Assembly: GCF_018977255.1 (NCBI RefSeq)
Contig: NW_024704742.1
Coordinates: forward strand, 8,124,001 to 8,188,000
From: Callorhinchus milii
Lineage: Eukaryota
Direction: 5' to 3'
Length of the DNA stretch: 64,000 nt
In this document: positions 48,598 through 56,606 of the stretch, one piece after another
Layout: the number at the start of each line of letters is the position of its first letter
Numbering within the stretch: position 1 is the first letter of the stretch
Notes under the pieces: generated by a model
Database searches by the model: none
Told to the model about the DNA's origin: nothing
Seen by the model: only the letters and a program-made list of their open reading frames with translations
Made by a program: the position numbers and the translations under genes

Positions 48598-48715
48598 TTG
48601 GCAACAGACTGAATCATTTTCGAAGACGTATCTTTGATGTTAGTTAGGAATCGCTCTGTGCCACCTTTAAGGATATCGAAGAACCCGCCAGGGGGCGATA
48701 CATCATTTTCATTAG
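48598..48715 (-). CDS. GAK: GAK exon (ex11)
   Basis: (A)NENDVSPPGGFFDILKGGTERFLTNIKDTSSKMIQSVA(N); phase 1-2. Confidence 0.96.
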
Positions 48716-49189
48716 CTAAGGAAAAAAATAATGCAAACTTCAGCTGACTTTTGTACATTTCCAGTCACATGAGAATCACATGTTCACTGTTTCTACAGCA
48801 CAGTCAACAGTAAAATCACAACTGGCTGTGCAAGTAGGAAGTACGTAGCTTACCCTCTGCGGAATGATTAAGTTAGTAAAATGACTAAATTATTCTTTGC
48901 AATTGAACAGTGCTCCACTTTATATGTGCGCTCTCTTTTTCTGGGGCAAATGTGTTTAACTAAATGTTGTATAAAATTAAATCAGAGGTATTTAGATTAA
49001 CCAAATTTAATTAAATATTACTAGAGATTCCCGTTAAAACTATTTAACACAAAAGACTTAAAGCAATATATGGGACATCTAAACAGGGACAGAAGCAAGA
49101 GTGGCGCTGAACTCCAGGAGTAATCAAAGATTGCCTTGGGATTCCAGGCAGAGGAAAAACTTTGGAACAGTTTTTCAGTTTATTTCTTT

Positions 49190-49536: not shown

Positions 49537-51151
49537 TTATTTCTTTATGGGTGGATTTAGGAGTATCCTATTCCGATACACCTTGGGACCAAAAAGGACA
49601 TCAAACAGACACAAAGATTTGCACAATTTGCATTTTTTTACAGAAATCAATACATCTTCTTAGTACAGTTTGAAATGTGTCAATTCACTAGGTTAAATAA
49701 TCAACGTCAAAAAATTCTAGCAGACGGGTGCCCTCCATGGCAAGTTTGAAGTAATTAAACCAACCTTTTCAGTTTTACAAACTTTAAAAAACAATTCTGT
49801 AAAATGTGGGCAAGGATCACGAAACAAGTGGTTTCCACATTCTGCTGATTTAAACCATGAAGAACTCTTAAAATATAAAACTAAACACCAGTCTTCTAAA
49901 CTATGGCAATTTAGTGATAGTTTCGCGGGCGGCAACCAAAATCTCATCAATAATAGTTGGTCCATCTCAAAACAGTTGTATCATTCCTAAAATACTGAGT
50001 CAATAATAATAATCATTGCATTTGACATAGTGCCTTATCACGCCTTCTAGACGCCTCAAAGTGCTTCACAGAATATACTGTAAAGTGAATTGACTATGTG
50101 GGCAATTTGTAAAGTGCAATGTAGATATTGCATCAAAATAACTACAGCATAAACTCCCAAAACCCAAAGGTATACCGTCTATGCACCAGTAACTTGAACA
50201 TTAACATTCTTTTTCCCAATAATCCACAGAATTTGTTCTGATCAGCATTTAGATCAAGGACGGTTTTGTGATGAAAACTGGACTGAAACTGACCAAATCT
50301 CTTCACACATTAAATGCAGTCGCCAGAGACAGTCTATTACTTTAGTCATCAAATAAAAGAAAAACAATTCTGTAGTTCCAGCAGATCAGAGTTCAAACCC
50401 CATTTTTGATTATTAATCTTCTCTTTATAGGTAAAATATAGCCTTCTCTCAGTTGTGGAGAGATCACTTTCTTTATAAGAGAGTCAGAAAAAGTAAATCT
50501 CATGCAATTTTCTCCTCATCTCCTGAAAGTATTTCGCTCTTTCATTCTACTGGGACACAGTTCTGTAAGCACCAGTGACTCTTCAGTACCTCATCCAACA
50601 GACCATTATTCTAGTGTGAGAAAAGGTAGCAAGTACAAAACAGCTACGTGATAATAGGATGCCTCGAAGAAAAGTATTATTCTCCTGAAAAAACATACAC
50701 ACACACACATATATATACTCTACCAGGAATCGTCTGGCACTGTTACTGCAGATTCAGGTGGAAATCAAAACCAGAGCACGTGTTGTTTTACATTTGCGAA
50801 TTAATTAGCACCGTAAAACATCACAATAAATGAAATAATCAAAATTGTGGCAACATCGAGCACACAACGATCTCTCCCTGGTGACCAGTTCCTGACGGAC
50901 TCTTCCCAACATGCGTTTGTAGAATTAAGATTCGGTTCCTCAATCTAAATCAACCAGACGGACGGGAAACACAACTAATCCTCTTAAGTGGCAAGGTAAC
51001 TTCGGTTTGCCTTTAGCTAGCTTTCACTTAAAGAGCTTTGAACGTATGAGTTCAACTTTTCACGCATCGGTTATCTTTATGCCTTTTCGATCAGTGAAAA
51101 CAATTCCGGAGTTCACTTCTCCTCATCTAAAAAAAAGAAAATGTTACATGC

Positions 51152-51263
51152 CTGCATTATGCATGTTGTTCGGTGGTCCTCCTGGCTTGCTCCAAGGTGG
51201 CGGTGAACTTGCCGTTGTCCGGGCTGGGACACTGTTGCCGAGCCCTCCATTGTGCTCCAGGAG
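51152..51263 (-). CDS. GAK: GAK exon (ex10), linker; GC-AG donor
   Basis: LLEHNGGLGNSVPARTTASSPPPWSKPGGPPNNMHNA; tctttgcag| acceptor; best phase-1 donor is CAG|gcatgt. Confidence 0.88.
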
Positions 51264-51323
51264 CTGCAAAGATTCGTAACTGTCACAATCAATCTTTCTC
51301 AGATAAGAGCCCGGCAGACTCAT
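51152..51323 (-). CDS. GAK: Alternative first coding exon of a kinase-less, auxilin-1(DNAJC6)-like GAK isoform
   Basis: In-frame ATG at 51323 gives MSLPGSYLRKIDCDSYESLQ-LLEHNG, matching the recalled DNAJC6 N-terminus MSLLGSYRKKTSNDGYESLQLVDSNG. Confidence 0.8.
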
Positions 51324-51700
51324 GAGAAAACTATTCAGGCACTCATACAATGAAGAATGCGGAGATTCCGAGCCACCAGTTGCACATTATTCTGCATCGT
51401 GGCAGAGCAGCTATGAGCTTTTCTTCAGAACAAACAGGCCATTGGTGGGTTAGTGCCATTTCAATGATCAGCTGTAGCACTTGCGAGCAGGCCTAGCGCT
51501 GTCCAACTGGCTTCAGGCCCAGCCTTCATCAGTACACGTAGCTGACTGCACCGGGCCTGGCCTGTTTGACGGTTAAGCTCATTAAGATAGCAGATGAGCA
51601 GATTAAACGATTATCCAGCTCTTTCTCTTCTTAAATGTGCAAATGGTCGCCCTTATTCGTTCTTTTTTGTTTTTAGGATCTGCTCAACTTTTCAACAACA
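51324..51700 (-). promoter_or_regulatory. Putative internal promoter/5'UTR of the short GAK isoform
   Basis: Repeat-free, locally GC-richer stretch upstream of the alternative ATG; CCAAT on minus strand (51441-51445); RE1-like half-site GCGCTGTCC (51496-51504). Confidence 0.45.
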
Positions 51701-52152
51701 TTTAGCTCTTTTAGGAGAATTTAGAAAAGCTCTAACATACTAAATGACAACAGGAATATGAAAACGTGGGAGCCCAGACAATAATCGTGCGAGAAAAATA
51801 AATACAGCATGAGCTCCCCTGACCCTTTAAGAAGATGGTCTTCACAAGATCTAATGCTTCTAATCCTGCAATAAGCCACATTAAATTCAGAGACAACAAA
51901 GTTAAAAAACTCTATAACAACAATTTGCACTTATATAGCACCTGTCACAAAGTATTCCATCTAAAGCACTATGCAAAGACAGTTTGGATAACTAGGGAGG
52001 GGGCGGTAACTGACCCAAAGCACATTCAAGGTCAGGTGAGGATGGCTATAAATGGGTATACAGTGTGCATTATCCAACATAAAGCCTCAATCAGGTATTC
52101 AGGCCTTCCCCCACAAAATACAGTCTGCACTTCATGTACTCCATGTATTACA

Positions 52153-52516
52153 TCCTGTAGCTCAGTGGTTAGAGCACGCGTCTCGCAAGCGAGAGACCTG
52201 GGTTTGATTCCCGGCAGGGCAAAATGTTGGGCAAGTTTCCTTACTCCTCACGCCTCTGTTTACTGAGGGATAATTAGGAACCCAGTTGTTAGTTGATTGA
52301 TGGATTGCTTTTCCAGAGATAATAATTCCTTAAAAAACAATAAATTGTTCACTCAATCCATGACTGTTTGTGCAATACTGCTGTACACAATTGGCTGCCC
52401 CATTTTGCCCACAAAATATACAGTCAATTCACTTTACAGTAAATTTTGTGAAGCGCTTTGAGACATCTAGAAGACATGATAAGGCGCTGTACCAAATGCA
52501 AGGATTATTATTATTA
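52153..52516 (+). mobile_element. tRNA-derived SINE, full length
   Basis: Complete head, body and tail. Confidence 0.92.
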
Positions 52517-53689
52517 CATCACGGGAAGCGTTTTGTGCTATCCTCTTAACTTGGAAGGTGCTACATCAAATGCAAGGATCATCATTATTGCATCTCAATA
52601 CCTTTGAAGACATTGGCAGAGAATGAGTTGATGCAACAAGTCAAAAAACATTGTAGTGCGAGTCTCTTGAAGAGTCTTCCAACTAGGATGCCAACGCTGA
52701 CTGCCACCACAACCCAGGTGCGACACTGAGTCTGAATCAGGCACTCTGCTCAGAGAATTCAGCAATCAAGTTACATTATTGAGACACATTGCCCACACGC
52801 TGCCTGAAATCAAGCACATCCGAACGTTCAGCAGATCTTGCACCGACCGCTTTTAGTTGGGATTTCCCCAGTGCAGCATGTTGAATTTTCAGAACTGATT
52901 CTTTGAAAGAGTCTGGAGACGGTTCAACTCCTTAGAAAGTTTGGAGACAAGTCTGACGTAAATTGTAGACATTGAATCCAGCCTACTGCATGTCCCTCGT
53001 GCCCTCTGTTCCATTGGTGGGCGCGCTTTCAGCCACTATGCCCAGAAACTCTGGAACACTCATCCTCTATCCCTCCACTTTGCCCCTTCCTTCAACTTCA
53101 GGTCACGCCTGAAGACTTTCCTATTCGGCAACGCCTATGGACACCTTCCCCCTCTCCCCGGCTCGGAGTCGTGCTCCGTCACTGTCGAGCGCTCTGGGAC
53201 GCTACCCTGCATGAGGGGCACTATATAAATGCAGGTTGTTGTGGTTACTGGAAAGGGTTATTGTCTGGACACCAATGCCTTGAAGCTAGCCAACTGGTAC
53301 CAACAACCTGAGAAGAAACAGACCGCCTGAAAAATATGACAAACTAAAAGAACTTCAATGTTTCCCTCACAGAGACCTTGCATGTTCAGTCAGCTCAGTC
53401 ACTACGGGAACATCAGTTATAATAATACAATATTATAATACAAGCTTCATGTACAGCTCTATTCAATCCAAAGCTGCCCAAGCACAGAGAGCCCTCTACT
53501 GGTTTCATATCATATGCAGCCTTATCCAGCCAATAATGAGTTTCTGTGTAGCTCAGAAAGTTTCAGAGTACTTCCGCTCACCACCAAATCCAAAGTGCTG
53601 ACTTCAAATGAAATGAATGGAGCTGCTTTCTACACAGACACGCATTCCTGCTCCATTGGAGGAGCTTAGTATTGAAATAAACCAAAATA

Positions 53690-54057: not shown

Positions 54058-56493
54058 CAAGGACATACAGTGTGAAGGTATTTCAATATACGGTAATTAT
54101 TCTGGATCCAGTTGTAGATGGGCGACAGTCAGTGTTGTTAAAAGGATTTTCTAAGTGCATTAAGCATGTGAAATTTTCTCATAATAGGATTGTGATGTTT
54201 CTATACTGTATGTAATTGAACGTTGAAAAACGCACTGCATTTTGTCCTACAATTATCTGGAGGAAACATTTTCGGCTACTTATGAGGTGATGTGATGAAA
54301 CTCCTGACCTTGTTGTGGTAGCGGCGGTGATGAATAAAGATCTGCTATGCACAATTGGCTGCCGCGGTTTGCCCAGAAATATACAGTCAATTCATTTTAC
54401 AGCATATTCTGTGAAGCGCTTTGAGACGTCTCGAAGAAATGATAAGGCGCTATATCAAATGCAAGGATTATTATTATTCGAGATTCAGAATAAGGGCCCT
54501 CGGCATATTTGATCTAATCATTCCAAAATACCAAACCTACCTTCTTCCCATTACATTATCAAGATGTTTCTTACATTAGTCTAGAATCTTGAGCTGAACA
54601 ACCCTTCTTGGTAGGTAATTGTACAAGCAGTTGAATACCATCTGTGCAAATAAATATCTGCTAATTTTCCCTCTTTCTCACAGAGATCCATTTTTTTCCC
54701 TTTCTCCTAGCAGTTCCATAGGCTCCATTCACCAGTCAGTACCTCACCCAAGTAACTATTATTCAAGTGCAAGTTTTGATAGTAAATGTTGGACCAATCT
54801 AATTAGGGCGCAAAACAGCATAACTGTACTGAAAAAGCATTTCTGGAACCTGCATTTTATCATGAGAATAAAATTTAAAAAATCCTTAAGTTTGATTTCC
54901 TTCACTTTGTTTCATTTCTTTCCACCTTCACATTGGGAGGACATCTCAGTGCTTCATTGGATATGCCTTAAAGTATTGTGTTTGTGTAAATTATGTAGGC
55001 CGATAACTTATACTTCATGGGCACTTTAGCCAACAAAAACAGCATAAATCTTATAAGTGAATAAACTGTCTCCTGTGCATCGCATATGCAGCATATTCAT
55101 GAGTATATACATGAATATACTCATGTAGCATTTGAGCAGGTTTCAGAGATAGGGTGAGGCAAGACCATGGAGGGATTACAAAGTGAAGACGAGGCTCTTG
55201 AATGCGAGCTTTGAGGGCATGGGGTGCCTGTGGAGCCAGACAAGTTTGAGGTGATAAGCTCGCAGAGCCTGGTGTGGGAGAGGACATGAGCTGCAAAGTT
55301 CTGCACAGCCTCCAGGACTGATAGGCAATTGGTCAGAAAAACATTGGTCCTGGAATCAAGGGTGGAGACAAAAAGGGACTTGGGTGCCATCTGCATACAT
55401 GTGGGGGTTAGGGAAGATTCTCCCAAAAGAAGGACTCACGACTATGATTGAAATCTTTAACAATGCACAAATTGCCTACAACTGCTGTGATTGCCTACAA
55501 ATACAGTTGCCGCACTTCACAGTAAAATCCTGTGAAGTGCTTTTGAACGTGTTGAAGACACAATAAAGTGCTATATCAAATGCAACATGATGATTATTAT
55601 AATAAATTAAATAATACAACATCCAGCTACTACAGCACAAGCGATAACTGTGGATTCCTCAACCTATATGGTACCAGAAGCACAATTTGGTGACCTTGAA
55701 CAAAGGGCTGGTGGAATGCTTATTTGACACAACAACTGGCATTTACATAGTGCCCTTCATGCCAGACGGCGTTTCAAAGCGCTTAAGAGTGGTGGAGCCC
55801 GATGCCGAGCCAGGGGGACGGGGAAGGTGACTGTAGGCACGGTCAAAGAAAAAAGGTCTTCAAACCTCGACCTGAAAATGGGGAGAGGTGGGGCCGGGTA
55901 AAGGGATTGGGGGAGAGAGTTCCACAGCTTCGGGGTGTAGTGGCTGAAAGCACAGCTGCCGATGGTGGGGAGAAAGGTCCGGGGGACAAGGAGGAGACTA
56001 GAGCGTAGGCAGCGGGTAGTGGTGTAGAGAGAGAGCAGGTTGGTGAGATGTTGGGGGGGGAGGGGGGCATGAAGAGATTGAAATACAAGAGTGAGGATCT
56101 TGAAATTAATTCGCTCTGTGACAAGAGAGTCAATAGAGTTTGACAAGGACTGGGGTAATGGAGGTACGGAGCTTAGTGTGGGTGAGAATGCAAGCGGCGA
56201 AGGACACTAGCTCCTTTACTGTACTGCACAGTAAATAGTCTGCCTCCAAGTGATTTCAGCCTCTTCAACTTCTATTGACATTTAGGGTGAGAGTTGGAGA
56301 GATTGTGCTGAGTTGCAGAGAAGCTGAGTGCTGTCTGTTCAGAGATACAGGACAAAACTCACCTCAACTGCTGTTATCAAACCAAAGTGATTCCGTGTTG
56401 AAAAGGAATTTGAATTTAAAAGTTACAACTCAATTTTAATGTGACTTAACTCCCCCTTCGCCTCCACAGAAATTAGTGACGAACATTTCCTAC

Positions 56494-56606
56494 CTCAGTG
56501 ACTGGAGACTTTGGATTGATATTCCTAGCTGCAGCTATCTCCTGAAGTTGATTGACCACCTCTGTAATGGTCAATCTCTCCTCCGGATTGATCTTCATCG
56601 TATTTC
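56494..56606 (-). CDS. GAK: GAK exon (ex9), end of kinase domain
   Basis: (R)NTMKINPEERLTITEVVNQLQEIAAARNINPKSPVTE; 113 nt, phase 1-0. Confidence 0.96.

Follow-up and report, generated by a model that had tools for sequence, protein, structure and literature searches.

A Met-led reading frame homologous to the auxilin-1 N-terminus at the end of intron 9 of the elephant shark GAK gene

The window analysed here is a stretch of 64,000 nucleotides (nt) from the elephant shark Callorhinchus milii (NCBI RefSeq assembly GCF_018977255.1, contig NW_024704742.1, positions 8,124,001 to 8,188,000; C1:8124001-8188000 of the 991-Mb genome), the minus strand of which carries GAK. The two co-chaperones of clathrin uncoating in vertebrates are GAK and DNAJC6 (auxilin-1), each of them a Parkinson's disease gene. 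In our reading, the final 60 nt of intron 9 would not be ordinary intron but a Met-led, conserved extension of the exon-10 coding sequence and the in-place orthologue of the first 20 DNAJC6 codons. The similarity of the hidden peptide to the DNAJC6 N-terminus is, on the alignments given below, real homology, and the maintenance of the element in the GAK genes of the chimaera and of teleosts is newly shown here by sequence comparison. The likeliest of the readings considered, held at about even odds, is that the element acts as an alternative first exon, which would give rise to a kinase-less, auxilin-like GAK from a coding start at 51323.

Two Callorhinchus milii proteins named cyclin-G-associated kinase (P0002 and P0003; Pfam PF00069/PF07714, PF10409 and PF00226) were placed on the window with tblastn. 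Their kinase, PTEN-C2 and J-domain exons fall between 61541 and 19913 on the minus strand, mostly at 87-100% identity, and a genome search with the full GAK located the earlier kinase exons just beyond the window edge. The numbering as exon 10 and intron 9 agrees with the exon matches counted within the window and immediately beyond it; it is deduced, because the first GAK exons fall outside the window. A spliced contig from sequencing run X4, in which 51152-51263 is joined directly to 48598-48715, establishes the canonical exon-10 acceptor and shows that intron 10 has a GC donor. GC donors are often linked to regulated splicing. The relevant parts of the gene are the following:

56491..56604, minus strand: GAK exon 9, the end of the kinase domain (...NPKSPVTE), with donor GTAGGA
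9 nt 3′ of the exon-9 donor, minus strand: a second GT (GTTCGT), used by the models P0004 and P0095
51264..51323, minus strand: the Met-led 20-codon open reading frame (ORF) MSLPGSYLRKIDCDSYESLQ, the last 60 nt of intron 9, homologous to the first 20 DNAJC6 codons
51264..51265, minus strand: canonical intron-9 acceptor AG, which also supplies the final two bases of codon 20 (CAG, Gln); the X4 contig piece begins at 51263
51152..51263, minus strand: GAK exon 10, 112 nt, LLEHNGG...NNMHNA, ending in phase 1, placed by tblastn and by the X4 spliced contig
51150..51151, minus strand: GC donor of intron 10 (G-GCATGT), seen in the window sequence and in the X4 contig (51152 to 48715)
48598..48715, minus strand: GAK exon 11, ANENDVSPPGGFFDILKGG..., to which exon 10 is spliced

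The ATG lies at 51323-51321, and its 20 codons (51323-51264) run without a stop into CTC CTG GAG CAC AAT GGA, that is LLEHNG, at 51263. An earlier note on this DNA, which had pointed to a stop-free, in-frame ATG 60 nt upstream of the exon-10 acceptor, was correct in every detail. Its observation that the SLQ codons contain this acceptor is borne out by both the window sequence and the X4 contig.

When the 78-residue open frame was searched against the genome, the best non-self match was C5:3697752-3697913 (E value 5.3e-4; the next match was at 0.255). The ORF found there reads MSLLGSYRKKTNHVGYQSLQLVDGN... and has a stop two codons before its Met. The search with the full GAK returned nine further C5 matches, on the same strand and 5.7-17.7 kb downstream, which cover GAK residues 385-1297 (from the PTEN-like region to the J domain) at 48-85% identity, and it returned none on C5 before residue 385. 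C5 therefore holds the kinase-less paralogue DNAJC6. Since kinase exons are present in the window gene, the latter is GAK with a hidden homologue and not a DNAJC6 gene.

A profile built from the two peptides (window and C5) retrieved 80 proteins among 294 candidates, three of which were Callorhinchus GAK models. The remaining 77 consisted of 52 named auxilin, five 'hypothetical/uncharacterized' proteins and 20 unnamed short ORFs, and a kinase Pfam domain was found in 0/77. The motif MSLLGSYRKKT(N/S)NDGYESLQLVDSNGD stands at residue 1 in 73 of these 77 and is near-invariant from teleost and coelacanth to birds and primates; the beginning of DNAJC6, which the earlier note had given, is thus confirmed for mammalian and other auxilins. 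The window peptide is identical to the consensus of the 77 (MSLLGSYRKKTNNDGYESLQLVDSNGD) at 16 of 27 positions, 13 of them among the 20 upstream of the acceptor, and the count rises to 17/27 with the Gly15 allele described below. A search with the peptide alone against proteins found the three Callorhinchus GAK models only. A six-frame control was made by scoring all 46,189 stop-free 20-mers of the window against the first 20 residues of auxilin P0005 (ungapped BLOSUM62; mean -18, standard deviation 9.1). The top score of 60 (13/20 identical) fell exactly at 51323 on the minus strand, and the runner-up reached 26. The alignment to DNAJC6 N-termini that the earlier note had proposed as a check is therefore sound, both against the consensus and in this control, with the C5 paralogue as the best match in the animal's own genome.

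The correspondence extends to the exon structure. Exon 10 aligns with the 3′ part of DNAJC6 exon 1 (LVDxNG...) and is homologous to it; because LLEHNGG of GAK exon 10 aligns with LVDSNGD of DNAJC6, DNAJC6 exon 1 equals the extension plus exon 10. Both the GAK extension plus exon 10 and exon 1 of the paralogue (stretch L002) end in phase 1 after ..GCA G, the latter as GCA G-GTAAAT. The exon arithmetic agrees, as far as the excerpted sources go: GAK is given 27 introns (PMC2821301) and the canonical DNAJC6 transcript 19 exons (PMC13230680), and 28 - 9 = 19; an older count in the excerpt of PMC2821301 gives auxilin 17 introns. The four nucleotides before the ATG, TCTC, are identical in the GAK element and at the accepted DNAJC6 ATG on C5. 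The first exon of elephant shark DNAJC6 was itself located at L002 1449-1656 on the minus strand (C5 about 3697700-3697907). It departs from the auxilin N-terminus at a few residues, with V for D14, Q for E17 and R/A for G26/D27, and it may be missing from the gene models, because no Callorhinchus auxilin is among the 80 profile matches.

The comparison of the hidden ORF with C5 also bears a coding signature. Identity by codon position is 13, 13 and 8 of 20, and of the 11 residues that agree, 6 are encoded by different codons (for example TCT and AGC for Ser, TTG and CTA for Leu). Upstream of the ATG, the adjoining 60 nt match the corresponding 60 nt of the paralogue at 19/60 positions, and blastn gave no nucleotide-level match to the paralogue at the hidden-ORF site. 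This codon pattern could arise from constraint on the DNAJC6 side alone, so that the GAK lineage itself is decisive.

For this reason the GAK genes of other fishes carry much of the argument. The region from the kinase tail to the PTEN start of the Callorhinchus milii GAK model P0004 was compared with the protein collection, and the best 120 of 878 matches were examined, to which all the counts of GAK models given here refer; kinase-less GAK isoforms, which would score lower, may be among the 878 beyond these 120. The canonical ..SPxTE-LLEQNGG junction was found in 100, other variants in five, and the element in-line in 15, namely P0004 and 14 teleost GAK models, in the latter directly before LLEQNGG. 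The teleost models with the element span Ostariophysi, Osteoglossomorpha and Acanthomorpha. It reads MSLLSSYYCLK(P/S)VYDGYESLQ in carps and Sinocyclocheilus, MSLLSAYYCLKPTFDGYESLQ in Astyanax, MSLLNAYCWKPTYDGYESLQ in Scleropages and (V/A/C)(T/S/V)MLSAYYCWRPV(Y/F)DGYECLQ in acanthomorphs, and MSLLSSYYCLKPVYDGYESLQ and VTMLSAYYCWRPVYDGYECLQ are further examples of teleost GAK copies. The substitutions among GAK copies are conservative (K/R, Y/F, S/A, V/T), and, apart from the window Ser allele, every copy of either gene has G-Y-x-x-L-Q-L; in GAK the last three codons of this core double as the acceptor. An element that is kept in the chimaera and in three deep teleost lineages beside the same exon cannot, judging from these alignments, be a neutral leftover.

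A profile search of 1.84 billion representatives gave 45 matches, of which 32 were of the DNAJC6 type, one (P0215) was of the GAK type and 12 were unrelated repeat proteins; no lamprey or invertebrate copy was among the 45. P0215 is an unnamed 69-residue ORF whose first residue is the Met (MSLLNTYCWKATYDGYESLQLLEQNGGFGN...); it extends across the exon-10 homologue and on into the following intron, and therefore has the look of an ORF called from sequence that is not spliced. In the ESM Atlas no usable match was found for the window peptide, and P0215 matched unnamed clusters only (at most 0.86). The repeat proteins P0199-P0207, P0212 and P0219 are long proteins with tandem YTSLQ(I/V)VNGNPAI(S/A)YYD repeats (for example YTSLQxVNGNPA). 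They were rejected as relatives, being unrelated to GAK and DNAJC6: the 30-column profile matched them by chance via YQSLQLVDGNRA of C5.

Whether the Met is a start codon or an internal residue can be approached from its surroundings. In the window, the reading frame is open back to 51386, with an in-frame stop 22 codons 5′ of the ATG, and the following features surround or fall within the element:

51324..51389, minus strand: upstream flank, 21 more open codons after an in-frame TAA at 51389-51387, with no conservation with DNAJC6
51342..51344, minus strand: GAG codon, the sole in-frame AG upstream of the ATG within the open frame and the acceptor implied by P0004 (..TEVGN-CLNSFLMSLPG..)
51335..51397, minus strand: out-of-frame upstream ORF, from ATG 51397 to TGA 51337-51335, read from the window sequence
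51281, minus strand: polymorphic site (T>C), AGT (Ser15) in the window and GGT (Gly15) in the X1 and X7 contigs and in P0004

Gly15 is carried by every DNAJC6 copy and by every teleost copy of GAK. A further variant in public contigs, G>C at 51338, changes Leu to Val five codons 5′ of the ATG.

Conservation starts at the Met, which is homologous to the start in DNAJC6, and the residues that precede it differ between fish clades. The Met is present in 14 of the 15 complete GAK-type copies, a sample biased towards open, in-frame copies, and is lacking in Echeneis. In six of the seven acanthomorph copies the ancestral Met position is occupied by V, A or C, with a Met two codons downstream. The shifted acanthomorph Met looks like the replacement of a lost start, as selection for a start would give.

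Under an alternative first exon, transcription would begin inside intron 9, and the first exon would be made up of a 5′ untranslated region, ATG 51323, the 20 codons and exon 10, spliced normally to exon 11. Translation from ATG 51323 would yield a kinase-less GAK that consists of the PTEN-like, C2, clathrin-binding and J domains behind an auxilin-type N-terminus, without exons 1-9. In transcripts from the main promoter, exon 9 is instead spliced to the CAG within the Gln-20 codon, giving full-length GAK.

A number of observations weigh against an internal start. No transcript starting in intron 9 was seen among the sequencing runs compared with the gene, of which one (X4) is RNA-like and X1, X3 and X7 are DNA-like, and the sole RNA-like contig, from X4, enters exon 10 via the canonical acceptor. 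Runs X1, X3 and X7 cover introns throughout a 14.5-kb stretch and behave like DNA, so the run set is neutral on the internal start. In each of the 15 models with the element it lies in-line within a kinase-bearing GAK; none of the best 120 proteins begins with it, and none of the RefSeq-named isoforms among these 120 (from sharks, rays, salamanders, turtles and many teleosts) contains it. The context of the ATG is weak (C at -3, A at +4), and the upstream ORF at 51397-51335 would precede it if transcription begins further upstream. There is no CpG island, the observed/expected CpG ratio being 0.36-0.71 over 51100-51599. The window's Ser15, which is polymorphic, replaces an otherwise invariant Gly, and the middle of the elephant shark peptide (LRKIDC) has diverged; local decay is therefore possible. 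There is also ascertainment bias, as only species with an open, in-frame region can yield in-line models, and the lack of stops among the 14 teleost copies is biased accordingly. Finally, in six teleost models the first residue of the insert, directly after ..TE, is V. If the whole intron is read through in these, their intron 9 would be only 84-123 nt long, and judging from these protein models any promoter would be forced to extend into exon 9 or intron 8. The RefSeq-named cyprinid GAK isoform X5 (P0135) carries a different insert of 17 residues, RISRSKTAIGERAASTL, between ..SPITE and LLEQNGG; it follows that other intron-9 sequence can be spliced in and that cyprinid intron 9 is not minimal. 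On the earlier note's claim of an auxilin-type N-terminus made by GAK, the homology holds (the C5 paralogue and 77 proteins), whereas for a second protein from an internal start no transcript or protein starting at the ATG was seen.

Four other explanations have to be weighed against the alternative first exon. The element may be an in-line insert, either an alternative 3′ splice-site extension or a retained short teleost intron, which would add ~25-45 residues to the kinase-PTEN linker and make the Met an ordinary residue. We consider this unlikely, although it accounts directly for the position of the element after ...SPxTE in all 15 models and for carp models that begin the insert five codons before the Met. 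It also draws on P0004, in which exon 9 (+9 nt) is linked, by way of the GAG codon, to an acceptor that lies 81 nt before the canonical site. However, GAG-TGC at 51344-51342 is the sole in-frame candidate acceptor upstream of the ATG in the window, the paired donor GTTCGT is weak, and no such junction was seen in the sequencing runs. By splice-site consensus, GAG is a poor acceptor. P0004 also excises a 45-nt GT..AG piece inside exon 10. The sister model P0095, of the Ensembl type, skips exon 10 by using the +9 donor (56482-56490) together with an acceptor 22 nt upstream of exon 11 (48716-48737; FALFFSL), by which the frame is restored; P0095 may represent a minor isoform or be artefactual. 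Such odd, compensating junctions look like frame-preserving modelling artefacts, and P0004 was rejected as transcript evidence. The in-line models are all of the UniRef/Ensembl type or submitters' 'hypothetical protein', and the lack of the element in RefSeq-named isoforms counts against an in-line insert as well. In addition, the stretch before the Met is unconserved and varies in length (inserts of 10-47 residues), and the Met is either retained or substituted by another two codons further on, for which there would be no need if it were internal. The alternative-first-exon and in-line-insert readings are not mutually exclusive.

It is rather doubtful that the element is a relic here, coding in the ancestor and perhaps still in teleosts, and left as an undecayed remnant in the slowly evolving genome of the elephant shark. 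Such a relic would fit the nonsynonymous polymorphism at Gly15, the Pro4 and LRKIDC middle that differ from all other copies, and the lack of transcript evidence in the runs; by our estimate, neutral drift in a slowly evolving lineage could account for the 13/27 identity to the paralogue taken alone, provided that DNAJC6 remained constrained. On the other hand, the ATG, a 20-codon frame without stop or indel and the identity to the consensus have been kept since the GAK/DNAJC6 split, which predates the fish-mammal divergence according to the excerpt of PMC2821301, while the flanking 60 nt show no similarity. The element is also kept in the fast-evolving GAK genes of teleosts and has therefore been maintained for most of GAK history. 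That the conservation reflects exon-10 splicing signals (branch point, polypyrimidine tract, intronic regulators) rather than coding is improbable. It is true that the element is exactly the last 60 nt of the intron, that TCT TTG CAG forms the acceptor and that intron 10 has a GC donor. Yet DNAJC6 has no splice site at the corresponding place and keeps the same residues. The similarity is at the amino-acid level, third positions and the Ser and Leu codon families being scrambled; it reaches 57-60 nt upstream to the Met, past the normal branch-point distance; and at the site neither a stable RNA structure (z +1.3) nor an Rfam family was found. Chance likeness of an open intronic frame to DNAJC6 is hardly conceivable. 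Twenty open codons alone are not rare, but a control score of 60 against 26 among 46,189 peptides, the first coding exon of the paralogue as the best own-genome match and the presence of the element in 14 teleost GAK models all speak against it.

If an alternative first exon is accepted, the origin of DNAJC6 appears in a different light. It is conceivable, though we hold it to be somewhat less probable than not, that the common ancestor of GAK and DNAJC6 had two promoters, one for a kinase-bearing form and another, in the intron that precedes the LLExNGG exon, for a kinase-less form with a MSLLGSY-type start; following the vertebrate duplication DNAJC6 would then have lost its kinase exons and kept the short form, and GAK, in chimaeras and ray-finned fishes at least, would encode both. 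Since the Met-led element is present in both paralogues, a dual-start ancestor is parsimonious, and the dual-promoter ancestor put forward in the earlier note stands as a parsimonious conjecture and not as a demonstrated fact. The note's further idea, that YESLQ of DNAJC6 is a fossil splice site, is likewise a conjecture, and YxSLQ is constrained at the protein level in DNAJC6 as well. Under the dual-promoter reading, both genes would share a functional module at the N-terminus, the GYxxLQL core, which we read as a motif of the YxxL type. That forms without the kinase can function is supported by published work: in the excerpt of PMC2821301, zebrafish auxilin and kinase-deleted fly auxilin are said to rescue fly auxilin mutants.

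Comparison with known systems shows which parts of this arrangement are familiar. The element resembles the DNAJC6 N-terminus in its Met-led MSLxGSY...DGYESLQL followed by L(V/L)(D/E)xNG, in the phase 1 exon end and in the TCTC before the ATG. It differs in that the 20 codons in GAK are intronic in a kinase-bearing gene and overlap an acceptor, in the putative nature of its start and in its middle (LRKIDC vs RKKTNN). With the canonical GAK (auxilin-2) isoform it shares the gene, and exon 10 and all downstream exons would be common to both, but the canonical isoform enters exon 10 from a kinase exon (..SPVTE-LLEHNGG), whereas the proposed one would be without exons 1-9 and hence without the kinase. 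The short dystrophins Dp116 and Dp71 likewise use an intronic promoter to make an N-terminally truncated protein with common downstream exons; unlike these, the proposed first exon of GAK would be a 5′ extension of a constitutive exon, with its coding part preserved as the start of the paralogue. Partition of isoforms between duplicates, as described in the excerpt of PMC4494069, is comparable in that DNAJC6 would have fixed one ancestral isoform, but GAK seems to keep the sequence for both, and the alternatives would differ by promoter and first exon and not by homologous cassette exons. Internal-promoter isoforms and isoform partition after duplication are thus well known, whereas their occurrence in GAK is apparently undescribed: the literature search found no account of an internal promoter in GAK, of a GAK isoform that lacks the kinase or of the peptide strings.

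If the alternative first exon is real, the short GAK would escape knock-outs, morpholinos and kinase-directed perturbations that target 5′ exons; a zebrafish exon-3 morpholino, mentioned in the excerpt of PMC2821301, is an example of such a perturbation. The redundancy between GAK and DNAJC6 would have to be reconsidered. Under the dual-promoter reading, the GAK locus would be a further source of 'auxilin-1-like' activity. DNAJC6 would have arisen by the fixation of a pre-existing short isoform and not by a fresh truncation that had to invent a start codon and a promoter. The N-terminal peptide of auxilin, ~20 residues that are identical from fish to mammals, is unstudied and is a candidate functional module.

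Some further features of the locus and its relatives were noted. A nucleotide comparison of the 1.3 kb 5′ of the ATG with the upstream region of the paralogue revealed no conserved promoter block, only common interspersed repeats (52182-52579). A transfer RNA (tRNA)-like sequence at 52151-52222 on the plus strand (Rfam tRNA, 45.6 bits) forms the head of a very high-copy repeat (~52176-52661) with huge contig depth, and a related copy lies in the paralogue stretch at L002 2981-3063 (84% over 83 nt). This repeat in intron 9 is probably a tRNA-derived short interspersed element. Skate GAK (P0105, P0110) begins MSIFQSAIDFLAG, and the canonical GAK N-terminus shares MS(L/I)(L/F)xS with the hidden element; this likeness, of about five residues, is probably a coincidence. 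Finally, the whole GAK kinase domain was matched at 30-35% identity by long single ORFs at C15:1124352-1125095, C21:8092347-8095999 and C24:454362-454973, which are taken to be intronless-looking kinase genes or retrocopies of related kinases.

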